Origin: Escherichia coli
GTDB taxonomy: Bacteria; Pseudomonadota; Gammaproteobacteria; Enterobacterales; Enterobacteriaceae
DNA: 64,000 bases
Direction: 5' to 3' (one strand)
Assembly (NCBI RefSeq): GCF_003991155.1
Contig: NZ_CP031293.1
Below are positions 1,366 through 63,699 of the stretch, piece by piece. The notes beneath the pieces are model-generated. The model was not told the DNA's origin and searched no databases. It was given only the letters and a program-made list of their open reading frames with translations. Within the stretch, counting starts at the first letter, position 1, and each line of letters opens with the position of its first letter. A program made the position numbers and the translations under genes.

Positions 1366-1968
1366 TTAAATGATTTGCCAGTCTTCAGCCATCAGGTCGC
1401 CAATGGATGGAACCCATGTAGCAAGGCGGTTCTGTGAGTTTTTCAATACAAGCGTGTCATTGAAAGTTGGCTCGCCAACATATTCGCCAAAGCCATAACC
1501 CAACGCAGACGCTAATTTTTCCCCTTTCACGAGATAAACAAACTGGTCTTTCCCATTCCATCCTGCCCGCTGCAAACTTTTGCCCTGTTTTAACGCTTCC
1601 ATGGCAAGGCCGAAACTTAGCCCTGATACCGGACGATAAGCCTTCTCGAATACTTCTTTTGGACTCCAGCTAACGTAGCCATCAAAGCGATCGGTGTTAG
1701 GTTTTCCGCCATCCAGATATTCAACCAGATAGCCTTCGTCCTCGCCGTTTTCTCCGGCAGGAAGCTGCCAGCCACGAAAATCGTTATATGCCTGTCTCGT
1801 CATCGGAAAGGCGTTAATCAGTTTTACGCCAATATGCTGGGTCATAAAATTACCTATGCAGTTGGGAATAAAAAGCCCCGCAAATGCGAGGCTAAATCCT
1901 GGTATTTGTAATGAACTGGCTCTTATCTCAACGCAGCCCCTTGCCGCGCGCCATATGCTTAACTTCAA
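1366..1968 (-). CDS. Hypothetical phage protein (start uncertain, internal Met candidates)
   Basis: 200 aa ORF in late operon between lysis cassette and terminase; N-terminal 55 aa hydrophobic and possibly not translated. Confidence 0.4.
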   Translation of the reverse strand: MKLSIWRAARGCVEIRASSLQIPGFSLAFAGLFIPNCIGNFMTQHIGVKLINAFPMTRQAYNDFRGWQLPAGENGEDEGYLVEYLDGGKPNTDRFDGYVSWSPKEVFEKAYRPVSGLSFGLAMEALKQGKSLQRAGWNGKDQFVYLVKGEKLASALGYGFGEYVGEPTFNDTLVLKNSQNRLATWVPSIGDLMAEDWQII

Positions 1969-2067: not shown

Positions 2068-2535
2068 TCATCGAAGGCATTGCGTCCTGATGTATTCCTG
2101 AAGCGTTCTCAGTGCTGTTTGGTCGCGGATAATTCCGTCCCGGATACCGAGAACGTTTCGTCCAGCAACTGGAGAGAGTTCGACGGTGGCATCATTGCCC
2201 ATGCCGGAGGCGCTGGAGGTTTCGGCTGAGGATGGCACAGGGCATTTTCCTTTGACGAGCACCCTGCCACCATTATCAAGCTTGCGCCGAAGAGCATCAT
2301 TTTCAGCTTTCGCATCAGCTAACTCCTTCGTGTATTTAGCATCAAGTGCATCAGCAGTACGCTGGCGCTGCTGCATGTCAGTAATGGTGGCAGTCGCCTG
2401 CTTCAGCTCACTGACTTTTTTATCACGCTGTTCTTTGTAGGCGATGGCGTTATCACGGTAATGATTAACAGCCCATGACAGGCAAACGATGATGCAGATA
2501 ACCAGAGCGGAGATAATCGCGGTTACTTTGCTCAT
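2068..2535 (-). CDS. Rz: Rz i-spanin
   Basis: [30 protein letters not shown]..., N-terminal TM anchor, lambda Rz-like, immediately after endolysin. Confidence 0.85.
2109..2315 (-). CDS. Rz1: Rz1 o-spanin lipoprotein, embedded in Rz in +1 frame
   Basis: [22 protein letters not shown]... lipobox plus proline-rich PPAPPAW segment, lambda Rz1-like, wholly inside Rz. Confidence 0.7.
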
Positions 2536-3008
2536 ACCTCAATCTCTCTGACCGTTCCGCCTGCTTCTTTGAATTTTGCAATCAGGCTGTCAGCCTTATG
2601 CTCGAACTGACCATAGCCAGCGCCCGGCAGTGAAGCCCAGATATTGCTGCAACGGTCAATTGCCTGACGAATATCACCGCGATCAATCATCGGTAAAGCG
2701 CCACGTTCTTTAATCTGTTGCAATGCCACAGCGTCCTGGCTTTTCGGAGAGAAGTCTTTCAGGCCAAGCTGCTTACGATAGGCATCCCACCAACGGGAAA
2801 GAAGCTGGTAACGTCCGGCTGCTGTTGATTTGAGTTTTGGGTTTAGCGTGACAAGTTTGCGAGGGTGATCGGAGTAATCAGTAAATAGCTCTCCGCCAAC
2901 AATGACGTCATAACCATGATTCCTGGTTTTCTGTCGTCCGTTATCAGTTCCCTCTGACCACGCCAGCATATCGAGGAACGCCTTACGTTGATTATTGATT
3001 TCCACCAT
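2532..3008 (-). CDS. R: Endolysin R (lambda-type lytic transglycosylase)
   Basis: 158 aa, [24 protein letters not shown]..., same length and N-terminus as lambda R. Confidence 0.9.
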
Positions 3009-3315
3009 CTTCTACTCCGGCTTTTTTAGCAGCGAAGCGTTTGATAAGCGAACCAATCGAGTCAGTACCGATGTAGCCGATGAACACGCTCGTTATATAA
3101 GCGAGATTGCTACTTAGTCCGGCGAAGTCGAGAAGGTCACGAATGAACCAGGCGATAATGGCGCACATCGTTGCGTCGATTACTGTTTTTGTAAACGCAC
3201 CGCCATTATATCTGCCGCGAAGGTACGCCATTGCAAACGCAAGGATTGCCCCGATGCCTTGTTCCTTTGCCGCGAGAATGGCAGCTAACAGGTCATGTTT
3301 TTCTGGCATCTTCAT
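2992..3315 (-). CDS. S: Holin S
   Basis: 107 aa, [39 protein letters not shown]..., lambda S-like with dual-start motif. Confidence 0.9.
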
Positions 3316-3615
3316 GTCTTACCCCCAATAAGGGGATTTGCTCTATTTAATTAGGAATAAGGTCGATTTCTGATAGAACAAATCCAGGCTACTGTGTTTA
3401 GTAATCAGATTTGTTCGTGACCGATATGCACGGGCAAAACGGCAGGAGGTTGTTAGCGCAGCCTCTTGCCACCCGCTTTCACGAAGCCAGCCATTGCGCT
3501 GGTTTTCTTTTATGCAAAGCACACCGCACCGTAGCCACAGCGGATAAGGTGATTATTTTGGTCTGTCTGGTATTTGGTTTGATGCGCTTTCAGAAAGGTC
3601 GTGCTTAAAACGCAA

Positions 3616-3650
3616 AAAGCCCCGAGCTATTAACTCAGGGCTTTATTTAA
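3616..3650 (-). terminator. tR'-like intrinsic terminator about 55 nt downstream of PR'
   Basis: Minus-strand RNA AAGCCCUGAG-UUAAUAG-CUCGGGGCUU followed by UUUUUG. Confidence 0.5.
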
Positions 3651-3677
3651 CGAGTGCATTTATCCATCGTTGAGTCA

Positions 3678-3706
3678 AATTTACCCAACTTTATTCAAAA
3701 AGTCAA
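3678..3706 (-). promoter_or_regulatory. Late promoter PR' (Q-utilisation region)
   Basis: Minus strand TTGACT-17 nt-TAAATT then TTGACTCAACGATGG, near-identical to the lambda PR' region as recalled. Confidence 0.6.
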
Positions 3707-3748
3707 TATTATGCCGTTAATATGTTGCCATCCGTGGCAATCATGCTG

Positions 3749-4372
3749 CTAACGTGTGACCGCATTCAAGATATTGTCTGCGATTGACTCTTCCTTGTGG
3801 CATTGCACCACCAGAGCGTCATACAGCGGCTTAACAGTGCGTGACCAGGTGGGTTGAGTAAGGTTTGGGATTAGCATCGTTACAGCGCGATATGCGGCGC
3901 TTGCTGGCATTCTTGAATAGCCGACACCTTTGCATCTTCCGCATTCTTTCTCAACAACTCTCCCCCACAACTCTGTTTTGGCAATATCAACCGCACGGCC
4001 TGTACCGTGGCAATCTCTGCATCTTGCGCCCGGCGTCGCGGCACTACGGCAATAATCCGCATAAGCGAATGTTGCGAGCACTTGCAGTACCTTTGCCTTA
4101 GTATTTCCTTCGAGCTTTGCCACACCACGGTATTTCCCCGATACCTTGTGTGCAAATTGCATCAGATAGTTGATAGCCTTTTGTTTGTCGTTCTGGCTGA
4201 GTTCGTGCTTACCGCAGAATGCAGCCATACCGAATCCGGCTTGTGATTGCGCCATCCCCATAGCAGCCATCACATCAGTACCGGAAAGGGAGTCAGAAGC
4301 CGTGGCCCGTGGTGAGTCGCTCATCATCGGGCTTTTTGGCGAATGAAATTTAGCTACGCTTTCGAGTCTCAT
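3749..4372 (-). CDS. Q: Late-gene antiterminator Q
   Basis: 207 aa with Cys-rich zinc-binding motif (CRDCHGTG...CGRCKG), positioned between nin region and PR'. Confidence 0.85.
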
Positions 4373-5034
4373 GCGCCTTCTCCCTGTACCTTAATCAATG
4401 TGAGGTTTCCGCAGAACACTGCTCCGGTATCGATATACATTTGGTTGGCAAACTTGAGTGGTTTCACTGCTGGCGTATGACCAAAGATGAACGTGTCCGC
4501 TCCCTTGATTTCTTTTACGATCCCGTCTTGTGAGTTGCTGATTCGTTCGCGGTTCCAGATTACCTGCTGATGAACAACTGGCTTTCCAAACTCGTATTCG
4601 TCACAAGGATAATCGGCGTGGCAGATAACATATTTTTTACCTTTGCTCACCAGTTCAATGATTAACGAAAGTTCATCTGCTTTATGGGCAAGAGCTTTAG
4701 CCAGAATTTCTTTGTCGTAATCGAGATTAAAGAACCAGCCACCGCCATTAAACAGCCAGTGATTGACGTTTCCACGCTCTGATAAGCCATCAATCATCAT
4801 TTGCTCATGGTTTCCACGTACAGCTCTGAACCAGGGGAATGTGATTAATTCCAGGCATTCGACGTTCTCTGTACCGCGATCGACCAAATCGCCAACCGAG
4901 ATAAGCAGGTCTTTTTTGATGTCGAATCCTATCGTCTCCAGTTTTTTCATCAGGTTCGTGTAGCATCCGTGCAGATCGCCAACTACCCAAATATTCCGGT
5001 ATTTGCTGCCATCAATTCTTTCGTAATAGCGCAT
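4369..5034 (-). CDS. ninI: Ser/Thr protein phosphatase (NinI)
   Basis: [25 protein letters not shown]... GDLVDRG, GNHE metallophosphatase motifs; start taken at internal Met matching lambda PPase. Confidence 0.85.
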
Positions 5035-12795: not shown

Positions 12796-13095
12796 ATGAC
12801 AGTAGTCATTACATATCTAGCTGACGATAACGCCAGAAATCGCCGCAGAGCACGCAGGCAGGCTCAACGTGAACAGGCAATGCAAGAACAGCGACTGGCG
12901 CGAAAGATTGCGCTAAAGCTCTCTGGTTGCGTCAGAGCAGACAAAGCAGCATCACTCGGAAGCCTTCGCTGCAAGAAGGCAGAAGAAGTCGAGAGTAAAC
13001 AGAACCGTATTTACTACCGCAAGCCACGCAGTGAAATGGGTGTGACTTGTGTTGGTCGCCAGAAAATGAAATTAGGCAGCAAACCACTTATTTGA
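12796..13095 (+). CDS. N: Antitermination protein N
   Basis: Arg-rich motif NARNRRRARRQAQ; C-terminus RIYYRKPRSEMGVTCVGRQKMKLGSKPLI resembles lambda N. Confidence 0.8.
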   Translation: MTVVITYLADDNARNRRRARRQAQREQAMQEQRLARKIALKLSGCVRADKAASLGSLRCKKAEEVESKQNRIYYRKPRSEMGVTCVGRQKMKLGSKPLI

Positions 13096-13106
13096 GAGGA
13101 ATTAAT

Positions 13107-13730
13107 ATGTCATCAATCCGCTTAACTACGAGAATGAAAGAGAAAATCGCTCGTAACGCTTTAATTAAGTCTGGGGTTTTCACTGAACTTGAAGAAGTAA
13201 CAAAGTTAAAGAACCAGCTTGCACTTGACGCCAGAGTTATTGCGTTTGGCGGTAAAAAGAAAACTGAGGAAGTGGATCAGTTATCATCCAGGTTAGTAGC
13301 TATAAGTGAAGAACTTGAAAAGATGGGATGTTCATTTTACTCATACGATGTTCGTTCTACTTCAATTTATCTGACTGTATCTGGCAGAAGGGTTGGATGG
13401 CATTCATATGGGAAAGACGGCAACGGCGAAGATATATTGCTCCCTACTCCAACCAAAGATAAATGCATGTTTGATGCAGAACACGAAATAACAAAAAGGT
13501 TTGATGAAATCTGCGCATTGCAACAAAAACTTGAAGCCAAGAAAAAGGATATCGAATCAAATGTATGGGCTGCTTTGAACTCAGTCACAACAGTTAAGCG
13601 ACTTATTGAAGTTTGGCCTGAAAGCAAAGAATTGCTACCAAAAGAAGCAGACAAAGCAAGTACAGCACTTCCTGCTTTACGGGTAGAAGATTTGAATAAG
13701 ATGATTGGACTTCCTTCCGAGTCCGCATAG
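13107..13730 (+). CDS. Hypothetical phage protein (207 aa) in the ral/sieB-equivalent position
   Basis: ORF with GAGGA RBS directly after N; no family recognised. Confidence 0.5.
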   Translation: MSSIRLTTRMKEKIARNALIKSGVFTELEEVTKLKNQLALDARVIAFGGKKKTEEVDQLSSRLVAISEELEKMGCSFYSYDVRSTSIYLTVSGRRVGWHSYGKDGNGEDILLPTPTKDKCMFDAEHEITKRFDEICALQQKLEAKKKDIESNVWAALNSVTTVKRLIEVWPESKELLPKEADKASTALPALRVEDLNKMIGLPSESA

Positions 13731-19691: not shown

Positions 19692-19883
19692 ATGACCGAT
19701 ACCAGCCTGATTCCTGAGAAAGAAGTGATGAACAAGCTCGGTGTTTCATCACGTCAGACAATCTGGAACTATACCAAACGGCACGGATTTCCGAAGCCAG
19801 TCAGAACCCACCCCAAATCATACCTTCGTGAAGCTGTTGAAGGGTGGATTCTTAACGGTGGCGTTAATCAGAAATGCTCCTGA
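19692..19883 (+). CDS. xis: Excisionase / AlpA-family DNA-binding protein
   Basis: 63 aa small HTH protein overlapping the 3' end of int on the opposite strand. Confidence 0.7.
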   Translation: MTDTSLIPEKEVMNKLGVSSRQTIWNYTKRHGFPKPVRTHPKSYLREAVEGWILNGGVNQKCS

Positions 19884-21042
19884 TGTGCCAGAACAATTTA
19901 TCAGCGTGAAGCTCATACGCTTTGCGCTGAGCCTCTATCCAGTCGTGTTTATTGTATACGGACATTATCCCGCCAAGTTCATGACCGAGCATTCGCTCAG
20001 TAACATGAGGCTCGACATTCATCTCGGACAGACGTGTAACAAGCGTTCTTCTGAAATCGTGTGTTCGCCAGTAACCTAGATCCATCCCTCCCCTTATTCT
20101 ATTTACGAATCGGTTGGCTGCAGCGATGCTGATCGGTTTGTTTATGTCTTCTCCAGGGAAAAGAACATCATTGTACGTTGTCATGGCCTTTTCGAGGAAA
20201 GGCTTAATTTGTTCGAAGATTGGACGGCGGATAGCATTACCCATCTTGCTATGCTCTTTCGGTACGGTCCATACGTTTTCCAGCAGGTCAAATTCTGTCT
20301 TTTTTGCCAGCCTAAGCTCTGAGAGCCTCGCCCCCCACAGCATAAGCATCTGATGAAGTAGCTTATTTGACGTAGACGCACGGCTTCTTTCAATAGCAAG
20401 CCAAATCTTAGCCAGTTCGTGATACGACAGTACACGATCCCCTACCTCAGCGCGGGAGCCGAAGTCCCTTGGTTGGATGCTCATAATTGCGCAACTATCT
20501 ATCAACTGACGCCGCATGCACCAACTTATTGCTGATCTTAGTTGACTTAGCACCTGCCTTGCTCGGCGTGGATTATCTCTTTCTTCTTCGGTAAGCAGGT
20601 CAACCCATTGCTTAACCGTGATAGAAGATGCCGGACGATTAGGGAAGGCGTCATGCATGCGCTTCATAACCGTTGATCGGTAAAGTGCCTGGGTCTTTTC
20701 TCTGAGAGTTGTAGAGACGTAGTTGTCGAACCAGTAGTCGAGACACTGGGCGACCGTCATGGAGTTCTCCACCTTCTCTTCAAAATAAGTGCGTGGATCC
20801 GTTCCTGAGAAATAGAGCTTTCGCAAGTCAGCAGTGATCTGTCTGGCATCCTTCAAAGACATGGATGGGTATCGACCAAGCCCAAGTCGATTAGGCTTGC
20901 CATGCCAGCGATAGCGGTACTGGAACTGGATGACCCCCTTCGGTGAAATTCGTACGCTGAGGCCATCGGCATCAGCCACTTCTTGTGGGCCCGAATATGG
21001 TTTACCATAAATAGTACGAAGTTTTGTGTCGCTTATAGCCAT
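19864..21042 (-). CDS. int: Tyrosine integrase
   Basis: 392 aa; C-terminal catalytic region HDFRRT...LGHELGG...YNKH. Confidence 0.9.
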   Translation of the reverse strand: MAISDTKLRTIYGKPYSGPQEVADADGLSVRISPKGVIQFQYRYRWHGKPNRLGLGRYPSMSLKDARQITADLRKLYFSGTDPRTYFEEKVENSMTVAQCLDYWFDNYVSTTLREKTQALYRSTVMKRMHDAFPNRPASSITVKQWVDLLTEEERDNPRRARQVLSQLRSAISWCMRRQLIDSCAIMSIQPRDFGSRAEVGDRVLSYHELAKIWLAIERSRASTSNKLLHQMLMLWGARLSELRLAKKTEFDLLENVWTVPKEHSKMGNAIRRPIFEQIKPFLEKAMTTYNDVLFPGEDINKPISIAAANRFVNRIRGGMDLGYWRTHDFRRTLVTRLSEMNVEPHVTERMLGHELGGIMSVYNKHDWIEAQRKAYELHADKLFWHIRSISD

Positions 21043-21223: not shown

Positions 21224-22648
21224 ATGACAGACACAGATAAACAACCTACCTTCCTCTTTCACGATTACGAAACCTTTGGAACGCACCCCGCGTTAGATCG
21301 CCCTGCACAGTTCGCAGCCATTCGCACTGATAACGAATTCAATGTCATCGGCGAACCCGAAGTCTTTTACTGCAAGCCCGCGGATGACTATTTACCCCAG
21401 CCTGGAGCAGTATTAATTACCGGTATTACCCCGCAGGAGGCACGGGCGAAAGGAGAAAACGAAGCCGCGTTTGCCGCCCGTATTCACTCGCTTTTTACCG
21501 TACCGAAGACCTGTATTCTGGGCTACAACAATGTGCGTTTCGACGACGAAGTCACACGCAACGTTTTTTATCGTAATTTCTACGATCCTTACGCCTGGAG
21601 CTGGCAGCATGATAACTCGCGCTGGGATTTACTGGATGTTATGCGTGCCTGTTATGCCCTGCGCCCGGAAGGAATAAACTGGCCTGAAAATGATGACGGT
21701 CTACCGAGCTTTCGCCTTGAGCATTTAACCAAAGCGAATGGTATTGAACATAGCAACGCCCACGATGCGATGGCTGATGTGTACGCCACTATTGCGATGG
21801 CGAAACTGGTAAAAACGCGTCAGCCACGCCTGTTTGATTATCTCTTTACCCATCGTAATAAACACAAACTGATGGCGTTGATTGATGTTCCGCAGATGAA
21901 ACCCCTGGTTCACGTTTCCGGAATGTTTGGGGCATGGCGTGGCAATACCAGCTGGGTGGCACCGCTGGCGTGGCATCCTGAAAATCGCAATGCCGTAATT
22001 ATGGTGGATTTGGCAGGAGACATTTCGCCATTACTGGAGCTGGATAGCGACACATTGCGCGAGCGTTTATATACCGCAAAAGCCGATCTTGGCGATAACG
22101 CCGCCGTTCCGGTTAAGCTGGTGCATATCAATAAATGTCCGGTACTGGCCCAGGCGAATACGCTACGCCCGGAAGATGCCGACCGACTGGGAATTAATCG
22201 TCAGCATTGCCTCGATAACCTAAAAATTCTGCGTGAAAATCCGCAAGTGCGTGAAAAAGTGGTGGCGATATTCGCGGAAGCCGAACCGTTTACGCCTTCA
22301 GATAACGTGGATGCACAGCTTTATAATGGCTTTTTCAGTGACGCCGATCGTGCAGCAATGAAAATTGTGCTGGAAACCGAGCCGCGTAATTTACCGGCAC
22401 TGGATATCACTTTTGTTGATAAACGAATTGAAAAACTGTTGTTCAATTATCGAGCGCGCAACTTCCCGGGGACGCTGGATTATGCCGAGCAGCAACGCTG
22501 GCTTGAGCACCGCCGCCAGGTCTTCACGCCAGAGTTTTTGCAGGGCTACGCTGATGAATTGCAGATGCTGGCACAACAGTATGCCGATGACAAAGAGAAA
22601 GTGGCGCTGTTAAAAGCGCTTTGGCAGTACGCGGAAGAGATTGTCTAA
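21224..22648 (+). CDS. sbcB: Exodeoxyribonuclease I
   Basis: 474 aa, matches E. coli SbcB throughout except first about 9 residues (MTDTDKQP here). Confidence 0.9.
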   Translation: MTDTDKQPTFLFHDYETFGTHPALDRPAQFAAIRTDNEFNVIGEPEVFYCKPADDYLPQPGAVLITGITPQEARAKGENEAAFAARIHSLFTVPKTCILGYNNVRFDDEVTRNVFYRNFYDPYAWSWQHDNSRWDLLDVMRACYALRPEGINWPENDDGLPSFRLEHLTKANGIEHSNAHDAMADVYATIAMAKLVKTRQPRLFDYLFTHRNKHKLMALIDVPQMKPLVHVSGMFGAWRGNTSWVAPLAWHPENRNAVIMVDLAGDISPLLELDSDTLRERLYTAKADLGDNAAVPVKLVHINKCPVLAQANTLRPEDADRLGINRQHCLDNLKILRENPQVREKVVAIFAEAEPFTPSDNVDAQLYNGFFSDADRAAMKIVLETEPRNLPALDITFVDKRIEKLLFNYRARNFPGTLDYAEQQRWLEHRRQVFTPEFLQGYADELQMLAQQYADDKEKVALLKALWQYAEEIV

Positions 22649-25533: not shown

Positions 25534-25793
25534 TCTCCTTTACGGTGATAACCGTCGCGTAAGCAAAAAATTGCCCCATTTTTTTGGATTCCTCAGCGAC
25601 AACAACTGTCGATTTTTAGTAAATATCTATCCGGTACGAAGCCCGGCCTCTTGGTATGAATGATTGGTTTGAAGCAAAAAATAACCGACGCTAATTAAAC
25701 GTCGGTTTTTAGTCATTTTTTGACAGCGGCGCATTGTGCCTAAATGGGGGGGAAATGACAAGAGAATGAGAGGCTTGTCATAATAATTTTTCT

Positions 25794-28019: not shown

Positions 28020-28070
28020 ATGACACGCGTTCAATTTAAACACCACCATCATCACCATCATCCTGACTAG
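28020..28070 (+). CDS. hisL: his operon leader peptide
   Basis: MTRVQFKHHHHHHHPD, seven consecutive His codons. Confidence 0.85.
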   Translation: MTRVQFKHHHHHHHPD

Positions 28071-28134
28071 TCTTTCAGGCGATGTGTGCTGGAAGACATT
28101 CAGATCTTCCAGTGGTGCATGAACGCATGAAAAA

Positions 28135-28170
28135 GCCCCCGGAAGATCACCTTCCGGGGGCTTTTTTATT
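28135..28170 (+). terminator. his attenuator terminator
   Basis: GCCCCCGGAAG-ATCAC-CTTCCGGGGGC followed by TTTTTTATT. Confidence 0.8.
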
Positions 28171-52189: not shown

Positions 52190-52228
52190 CACGCTACCGC
52201 CCCTGGCTCAACAGCTACCAGCGTACTG
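52190..52228 (-). promoter_or_regulatory. JUMPstart element with ops (GGCGGTAGCGTG)
   Basis: Minus strand CAGTACGCTGGTAGCTGTTGAGCCAGGGGCGGTAGCGTG upstream of wzx. Confidence 0.6.
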
Positions 52229-58724: not shown

Positions 58725-59325
58725 GCCGTTTTTTGCCTGATGCGACGCTAACGCGTCTTATCAGACCTACAAGATCCGAGCACAGAACCGTAGGACGGAT
58801 AAGGCGTTCACGCCGCATCCGGCATTCAGTGCCTGATGCGACGCTGACGCGTCTTATCAGGCCTACAAGACCCGAGCACAGAGCCGTAGGACGGATAAGG
58901 CGTTTTACGCCGCATCCGGCATTCAGTGCCTGATGCGACGCTGACGCGTCTTATCAGGCCTACAAGATCCGAGCACAGAACCGTAGGCCGGATAAGGCGT
59001 TTTACGCCGCATCCGGCATTCAGTGCCTGATGCGACGCTGGCGCGTCTTATCAGGCCTACAAGACCCGAGCACAGCCCCCCAGGACGGATAAGGCGTTTT
59101 ACGCCGCATCCGGCATTCAGTGCCTGATGCGACGCTGACGCGTCTTATCAAGCCTACAAGATCCGAGCACAGAACCGTAGGCCGGATAAGGCGTTTTACG
59201 CCGCATCCGGCATTCAGTGCCTGATGCGACGCTGGCGCGTCTTATCAGGCCTACAAGACCCGAGCACAGCCCCCCAGGACGGATAAGGCGTTTTACGCCG
59301 CATCCGGCAACCGTTGCCGGAACCG
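58725..59325. repeat. Tandem REP/BIME array (about six units of about 98 bp)
   Basis: Repeated GCCTGATGCGACGCTGACGCGTCTTATCAGGCCTACAAG...GGATAAGGCGTTTACGCCGCATCCGGCA units. Confidence 0.8.
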
Positions 59326-63636: not shown

Positions 63637-63699
63637 ATCGTTACCCTTTTTCAGGCAATAGTTGGCCCTGACCGAAACGGCCAATTTTGTTTTTGTCGT

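Follow-up and report, generated by a model that had tools for sequence, protein, structure and literature searches.

Results

Genes and late-control elements between Q and S

We analyzed the interval between the late antiterminator gene Q and the holin gene S of a prophage carried in a 64,000-nucleotide stretch of Escherichia coli DNA, hereafter the window. The interval spans positions 3316-3748 (433 bp), and all of its late-control features lie on the minus strand. On one side is Q (3749-4372, minus strand), whose product is of the lambda type (Pfam PF03589, Antiterm, E=6e-58) and identical to lambda Q at 207 of 207 residues (100%). On the other side is S (2992-3315, minus strand), the first gene of the late operon, with a match to the Pfam family Phage_holin_3_1 (E=2.4e-30). 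The S protein opens with MKMPEKH and has dual starts, Met1 at 3315 and Met3 at 3309. Two further late genes, R (2532-3008) and Rz (2068-2535), are encoded on the same strand.

A lambda-Q-type (type 1) unit is expected to have the gene for a lambda Q family protein directly upstream of the late promoter PR', and this is the order found here. The sigma-70 promoter lies just 3' of Q and carries a Q-binding element between its -35 and -10 hexamers, again as expected of such a unit. PR' (3678-3706, minus strand) consists of the -35 hexamer TTGACT (3706-3701), a 17-nt spacer and the -10 hexamer TAAATT (3683-3678), and the records of lambda, P22 and HK140, which share both hexamers, label the site PR' or P late. 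The original prediction, which named no strand, of a Q-to-S interval with a lambda-type PR' is borne out by the flanking Q and S genes and by the lambda-identical hexamers. A promoter scan of positions 2900-4400 returned PR' as the sole promoter-like site. Taken by itself, the match to the promoter consensus is no better than chance (one site found in this region, 2.0 expected), but the call carries weight because the annotated PR' promoters of lambda, P22 and HK140 have nearly the same sequence.

Alignments place the qut region at 3655-3700 (minus strand), with the Q-binding element in the promoter spacer and a pause element downstream. The Q-binding element, TTTTGAATAAAGTTGGG, is identical to that of lambda at 15 of 17 positions and to that of P22 at all 17; the two spacer positions that differ from lambda count against a lambda-type switch here, but the element is the one that functions in P22. 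Lambda, P22 and the window share the -10-like sequence AACGAT, which covers +1 to +6 (3671-3666) and would be the pause-inducing element of a lambda-Q-type unit. The roles of the qut elements in Q binding and pausing are established in the lambda Q literature. The first nucleotide of the late operon (+1) is predicted at 3671 (minus strand), in the same alignment column as the nucleotide annotated "P late RNA 5' nt" in P22 (NC_002371).

A terminator about 60 nucleotides from the start

In a lambda-Q-type arrangement, an intrinsic terminator also separates the promoter from the first late gene. The tR' terminator of the window (3607-3644, minus strand) is a hairpin at 3644-3616 with the stem AAAGCCCUGAG/CUCGGGGCUUU, followed by UUUUUGCGUUUU. 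According to the terminator scan the hairpin has 13 pairs, six of them G-C. It folds at -19.1 kcal/mol (z=-4.48), and none of 200 shuffled sequences was equally stable. The U-run right after the stem comprises only five U before GCG, so that the efficiency of termination cannot be read from the sequence.

Counted from 3671, the stem occupies +28 to +56 and the 3' end would fall at about +58 to +62, so the earlier placement of a hairpin about 55 nt downstream of PR' was correct. The predicted PR'-tR' leader RNA (3611-3671, minus strand) is about 58-62 nt long, as judged from its start and terminator, and folds as a whole at -23.3 kcal/mol (z=-4.27).

Of 152 short-leader sequences, namely the window and 151 loci, essentially all have the terminator, which varies only by rare single-base changes. 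The stem is too conserved to show covariation, and the sole structure-preserving variant is a single hairpin inversion. In this variant, from one IMG/VR locus, the inner part of the hairpin (relatives of 3616-3644) is exactly inverted, from TGAGTTAATAGCTCG to CGAGCTATTAACTCA.

Comparison with P22 and the HK phages

Aligned with its flanks and over its full length, the interval shares 94-98% identity with phages HK544, HK140, HK106, mEp234, ECP1, Sf101, HK022 and HK97. P22-like Salmonella phages such as Emek match the first 89% of the interval query. HK022, HK97, HK140, HK544, HK106, mEp234 and Sf101 differ from the window by point differences only, for instance at 3369, where the window has A instead of T.

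The records of these phages annotate the stretch to different extents. PR' and the Qut site are marked in those of HK140, HK544 and mEp234; the HK140 record labels the promoter "similar to coliphage lambda PR' with 1bp mismatch" in addition to the Qut site, and the GenBank notes of HK140 and HK544 describe the latter as 'similar to lambda Qut site with 1-2 bp mismatch'. The Emek record annotates the hairpin equivalent to tR' as a rho-independent terminator. The records of HK022, HK97 and Sf101 list genes alone across the Q-S stretch.

P22 (NC_002371) offers a further annotated counterpart. Between its genes 23 and 13 are annotated "P late or P R'", qut and the 5' nucleotide of the late RNA, and the position of the window hairpin carries the entry "t late or t R'; antiterminated by gene 23 protein". 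Order and spacing are alike: genes 23 and 13 are separated by 434 bp, and Q and S by 433 bp. P22 and the window do not differ in the promoter spacer, in the start region or over the first ~37 nt of the leader, and the P22 terminator has the same stem with a different loop. After the terminator, about 300 nt are only ~75-80% identical and contain several indels, and the stem-loop ahead of the P22 holin start differs in sequence from that of the window.

The arrangement goes back to the P22 work and is already marked in reference genomes, and the biological gain is small. The short unit is not peculiar to this prophage; it is the standard annotated arrangement of P22, HK022 and HK97.

Comparison with lambda 6S and StxS

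Lambda and the window are essentially identical over the 3' end of Q and on through the promoter, and the AACGAT element is identical as well. After the pause element identity drops, and the homology ends at about +24 to +30. Beyond this point lambda has a ~135-nt 6S body with its own terminator and then two further lambda-only blocks. Directly downstream of lambda tR', the first block holds the sequence of the LPR2 northern probe (Silverman et al., bioRxiv 10.1101/2024.10.31.621285, Table S5). Homology to lambda restarts at CTTCGTGAAAGCGGG (window ~3486) and continues to S; lambda and the window differ little or not at all over the final ~170 nt ahead of S. Between the short terminator and ~3486, the segment at 3487-3606 (minus strand) is specific to the short type and non-coding, aligns in lambda to gaps or unrelated sequence, and carries indels of 1, 5 and 8 nt among relatives.

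The leader of lambda is 194 nt long and contains orf-64, followed by the LPR2 segment, whereas that of the window is ~60 nt long, ends in another terminator hairpin and is without the 6S body, orf-64 and LPR2 segment. Allowing up to three mismatches, neither the lambda 6S probe sequence nor the LPR2 probe sequence had a match in the window, and the lambda segment holding the latter aligns to a gap. The original prediction that the PR'-tR' unit is shorter than lambda 6S thus agrees with the lengths (~60 against 194 nt) and with the end of the homology; with ~24-30 nt of the 194-nt transcript in common, the unit is not a lambda 6S RNA. The junction right after the short terminator is a mosaic boundary, and some relatives join the short terminator to lambda post-tR' sequence.

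One may ask whether such a short RNA could also act in trans in lysogens, as StxS does. In Stx phages a 258-nt primary transcript is cut by RNase E to 74 nt, stx lies downstream, and Hfq binding and targets of StxS have been demonstrated (PMC7547250). The likeness of the window leader to StxS is one of genomic position and of origin, as a PR' transcript ended at tR' in lysogens. StxS nonetheless sets a precedent for a leader that regulates in trans (PMC7547250), and PR' transcripts are made in lysogens: lambda 6S is Hfq-associated and reaches comparable levels in lysogenic and lytic conditions (bioRxiv 10.1101/2024.10.31.621285). In the window leader, a single-stranded A/U-rich stretch precedes the terminator hairpin and its U tail, and the leader sequence is nearly invariant across the 152 short-leader sequences. 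However, recent common ancestry and the cis needs of qut and tR' explain the invariance equally well, and the 5' 24 nt are constrained by Q loading and pausing. The U tail is short (5 U), and no Rfam family matches at E<=1. Overall, we consider a role of the ~60-nt RNA as a trans-acting regulatory small RNA, in addition to its role in the switch, to be unlikely.

A more specific version of this idea starts from the two Hfq-associated RNAs that lambda has at its Q-S site, 6S and LPR2 (bioRxiv 10.1101/2024.10.31.621285). By analogy, the ~60-nt leader, which P22/HK022-type prophages, a very common kind, would produce constitutively in lysogens, might be a compact trans-acting replacement for both; separately, the stem-loop HP2 (see below) might set the expression of the lysis genes. 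We hold these proposals to be slightly less probable again. Short Q-regulated late-promoter RNAs of phages 21, phi80, 82 and P22 have been cited as known (PMC7547250). The short PR' leaders of non-Stx lambdoid prophages might have trans functions like that of StxS.

A structured leader between tR' and S

The ~170 nt adjoining S are conserved with lambda and P22 and bear stem-loops, two of which show compensatory changes. To quantify the pairing, we aligned 12 diverse sequences of this S-proximal region, comprising lambda-type, HK97, P22-type, L121 and L166 leaders. The hairpins named from the window were paired in 86.6% of cases across the alignment, compared with at most 46.5% when the partners were slid, and covariation was greater than in all 500 shuffles, in an alignment that represents few lineages and for a structure taken from one of the aligned sequences. 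We found no usable description of the S-proximal leader hairpins in the literature. The region is best read as a cis-acting leader structure.

One of these elements is HP2 (3430-3476, minus strand), a composite stem-loop with the outer stem GCGGGU/GCCCGU and the inner stem GGCAAGAGG/CCUCCUGCC, which folds at -21.5 kcal/mol. The outer helix is paired in 94% and includes a change from CG to UA at columns 11-57 (CG:6, UA:5); in the inner stem UA changes to CG at columns 26-37 (UA:6, CG:5). The L121 and L166 leaders have hairpins that are structurally equivalent to HP2 and different in sequence. We considered HP2 and its trailing GUUUU as a conserved second intrinsic terminator and rejected this, as the U-run is not kept in the P22-type, L121 and L166 leaders; by its sequence, a conserved terminator role for HP2 is unlikely. 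It may possibly be an RNase III processing site; RNase III sites in lambda late RNA were reportedly described in a 1988 Virology paper.

Some variation within HP2 deserves separate mention. The opposed pair 3466/3445 (minus strand) of the inner stem is hypervariable (A/T/G opposite C/A/T) and mismatched in most variants; the window has A opposite C, and both lambda (G-C) and P22 (A-T) are paired. In two variants (relatives of 3450-3461) the loop is inverted or replaced, from GCGCTAAC to GTTAGCGC. Like the inversion in the tR' hairpin, these inverted or replaced parts look like template-switch events at quasi-palindromes.

Closer to S is HP3 (3376-3416, minus strand), a stem-loop formed by GAACAAAUCUG...CCUGGAUUUGUUC with a predicted energy of -14.1 kcal/mol (z=-2.9). 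Its sequence is conserved in all lineages without two-sided changes, and hence yields no covariation evidence. A third stem-loop (3336-3321, minus strand) stands immediately upstream of the S start codons. Its stem is CCCC/GGGG in the window and CCUCAC/GUGAGG in the P22-type counterpart, and covariation is seen at the pairs 155-169 (CG:8, UA:4) and 157-167. This stem-loop occupies the position of the 'sdi' structure of lambda S known from published work on lambda and P22.

The terminator scan also returned a hairpin with a T-run that faces against late transcription (3483-3506, plus strand). It could mark the end of an unannotated antisense transcript, for example an RNA opposite the S leader. 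The hairpin and T-run are present on the plus strand, the fold is more stable as plus-strand RNA (-12.0 kcal/mol, z -2.5) than as minus-strand RNA (-9.6 kcal/mol, z -1.0), and P22-type leaders retain the hairpin by means of a paired C/G insertion. Nevertheless, this stability is modest, a few natural variants weaken the hairpin to -2.4 kcal/mol, and the plus strand has no sigma-70-like promoter within 2900-4400. The hairpin may equally be a fold of the sense-strand leader or a safeguard against stray leftward transcription. We regard an antisense transcript ending here as quite improbable, though more probable than the readings involving a decayed locus or a small gene discussed below.

Open reading frames in the interval

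No moron or cargo gene (stx, tRNA genes or HNH endonuclease) lies between tR' and the holin gene, as originally predicted, and promoter, terminator and leader fully explain the 433 bp. ARAGORN detected no tRNA in the interval, a Pfam scan of the interval ORFs gave no match, and an Rfam scan of 2500-5000 at E<=1 gave no family. The prediction also held that ~300 bp are without a credible ORF; ORFs of at least 20 aa do exist and none of them is credible. There is likewise no sequence evidence for a small gene or sRNA in 3316-3600, yet these ~300 bp are not featureless, given their conserved stem-loops.

The ORF with the best claim to being a gene runs from 3522 to 3343 on the minus strand, the sense strand of late transcription, and has 59 codons (51 in relatives). 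It matches phrog_22751, a family of unknown function, at 51 of 51 positions (E=1.4e-40), and homologues are annotated in HK140 (HK140_065, hypothetical), mEp234 and several PGAP records of E. coli. The PHROG match adds no independent weight, however, because every member of the family stems from DNA sharing at least 95% identity. Among indel-free variants, substitutions are distributed 93:51:12 over codon positions 1:2:3, the reverse of a coding constraint. Four variants have in-frame stops, and the ORF is frameshifted or without a start in HK97, in the mEp213 type (5-nt insertion) and in the P22 type, where indels break the frame and the start codon is absent. The window copy is longer only through a T-to-A change at 3369 that removes the stop codon common to all relatives. 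The start codon is GTG, a Shine-Dalgarno sequence is not evident, and the hairpins formed by the same DNA covary. The idea that the interval holds a small protein gene of 51-59 codons is on these grounds largely refuted, and we give it very little credence.

Two other candidates were rejected as well. A 65-codon antisense ORF (3411-3608, plus strand) has no Pfam or PHROG match and is annotated in Sf101 only (Sf101_0056). Of 67 distinct leader variants, 35 keep it intact; frame-breaking indels occur in 14 and a lost start or gained stop in 18. A 13-codon ORF (MAGFVKAGGKRLR*, 3494-3453, minus strand) stops in the HP2 loop and lacks a Shine-Dalgarno sequence, and its residues vary among relatives (K/M/R, R/P). 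Lambda has a 12-codon ORF in the same frame with unrelated sequence upstream. This mini-ORF is probably an incidental by-product of the HP2 hairpin.

Taken for annotation, phrog_22751, HK140_065, Sf101_0056 and some of the PGAP calls, and with them the 'hypothetical proteins' called in the Q-S interval, very probably arose as artefacts of gene callers within a structured RNA leader.

Distribution of the short form and inserts at the site

To place the short form among its relatives, we counted terminator types in 85 sequences with near-identical Q (99-100%), namely 80 IMG/VR loci, four reference phages and the window. By this pattern-based count 43 have the short terminator and 29 the lambda terminator; in this sample the short unit is at least as common as that of lambda. 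Among complete E. coli genomes, 284 of 5426 (~5%) hold at least 80% of the exact interval.

More than 70% of the short-leader loci with enough downstream sequence to judge have 355-362 nt from the start to the holin gene, as in the window, whose interval length is that of the cargo-free majority form. The remaining short-leader loci carry inserts between tR' and the holin gene, among them HNH homing endonucleases (Pfam HNH_3, NUMOD4) and uncharacterized ORFs that are 81-118 aa long. The Q-S site is thus an insertion hot spot that is empty in the window. Inserts of relatives were seen at loci L046, L176, L008, L138 and L141, and comprise two kinds of HNH endonuclease, one of 173 aa with NUMOD4 and one of 166 aa with an AP2-like domain, as well as uncharacterized ORFs that are 118 and 81 aa long.

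Proposed mode of action of the late switch

The interval is very likely an ordinary late switch of the lambda family, and no observation contradicts this reading. The version is that of P22, HK022 and HK97, in which the promoter is followed some 60 bases on by a terminator and then by a folded non-coding leader ahead of the lysis genes, with no extra gene. Sequence identity, predicted fold, conservation and the absence of a coding signal are the direct observations behind this reading. For annotation, the locus can be described as an intact lambda-Q-type late switch with no toxin or other cargo between Q and S.

Because Q is identical to that of lambda and qut to that of P22, the unit most likely works as in these two phages, on whose analogy promoter activity, pausing, termination and Q-dependent read-through are ascribed to it. 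PR' would initiate constitutively. Soon after the start, RNA polymerase would pause at the -10-like AACGAT, in a sigma-70-dependent pause near +16. Without Q, it would terminate at the tR' hairpin and release the ~60-nt leader. Once made from the early-right operon, Q would bind its element in the spacer and load onto the paused polymerase, which would then resist termination and pass tR'. Read-through would yield ~290 nt of structured non-coding leader followed by S-R-Rz and the virion genes. The lambda and P22 Q proteins 'can substitute for one another' (bioRxiv 10.1101/2020.10.05.325894), and this interchangeability suggests that read-through of tR' in the window would be Q-dependent as well.

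The same sequence could in principle be a decayed remnant in a defective prophage that regulates nothing. The window covers part of the prophage, with the virion genes lying beyond position 1, which leaves some room for this reading. Against it, the window has full-length ORFs with strong family matches for Q, S, R, Rz, the integrase, the repressor and the replication genes, and the regulatory sequence is 97-98% identical to that of plaque-forming phages. We consider decay highly improbable and retain the functional late switch as our reading.

Other features of the prophage and host region

The prophage (window 1-21100) is P22-like, has a gp3 small terminase gene at 127-621 and runs off the left window end. 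Between Rz and the small terminase gene is a 200-aa ORF (1366-1968, minus strand) that matches phrog_872 and the Pfam family PF11195 (Tad2-like, E=1.2e-21), a Thoeris anti-defense 2-like domain. Judging from this match, the late operon does carry an accessory, possibly anti-defence, gene outside the Q-S interval. In the early-left region, a 227-aa ORF (13047-13730, plus strand) matches Nmad5, 'nucleotide modification associated domain 5' (E=5e-72).

The integrase gene (19864-21042, minus strand) is located ~180 bp from the host exonuclease I gene sbcB (21224-22648, plus strand). The sbcB gene is also the integration site of phage Sf101, which is among the closest matches. Host DNA in the window comprises the his operon and the O-antigen and colanic acid region, where Rfam identified the His leader (28046-28169), a JUMPstart element (52190-52228), five tandem copies of naRNA4 of the REP type (58793-59251), STnc240 (25674-25748) and an algC RNA motif (63641-63690).
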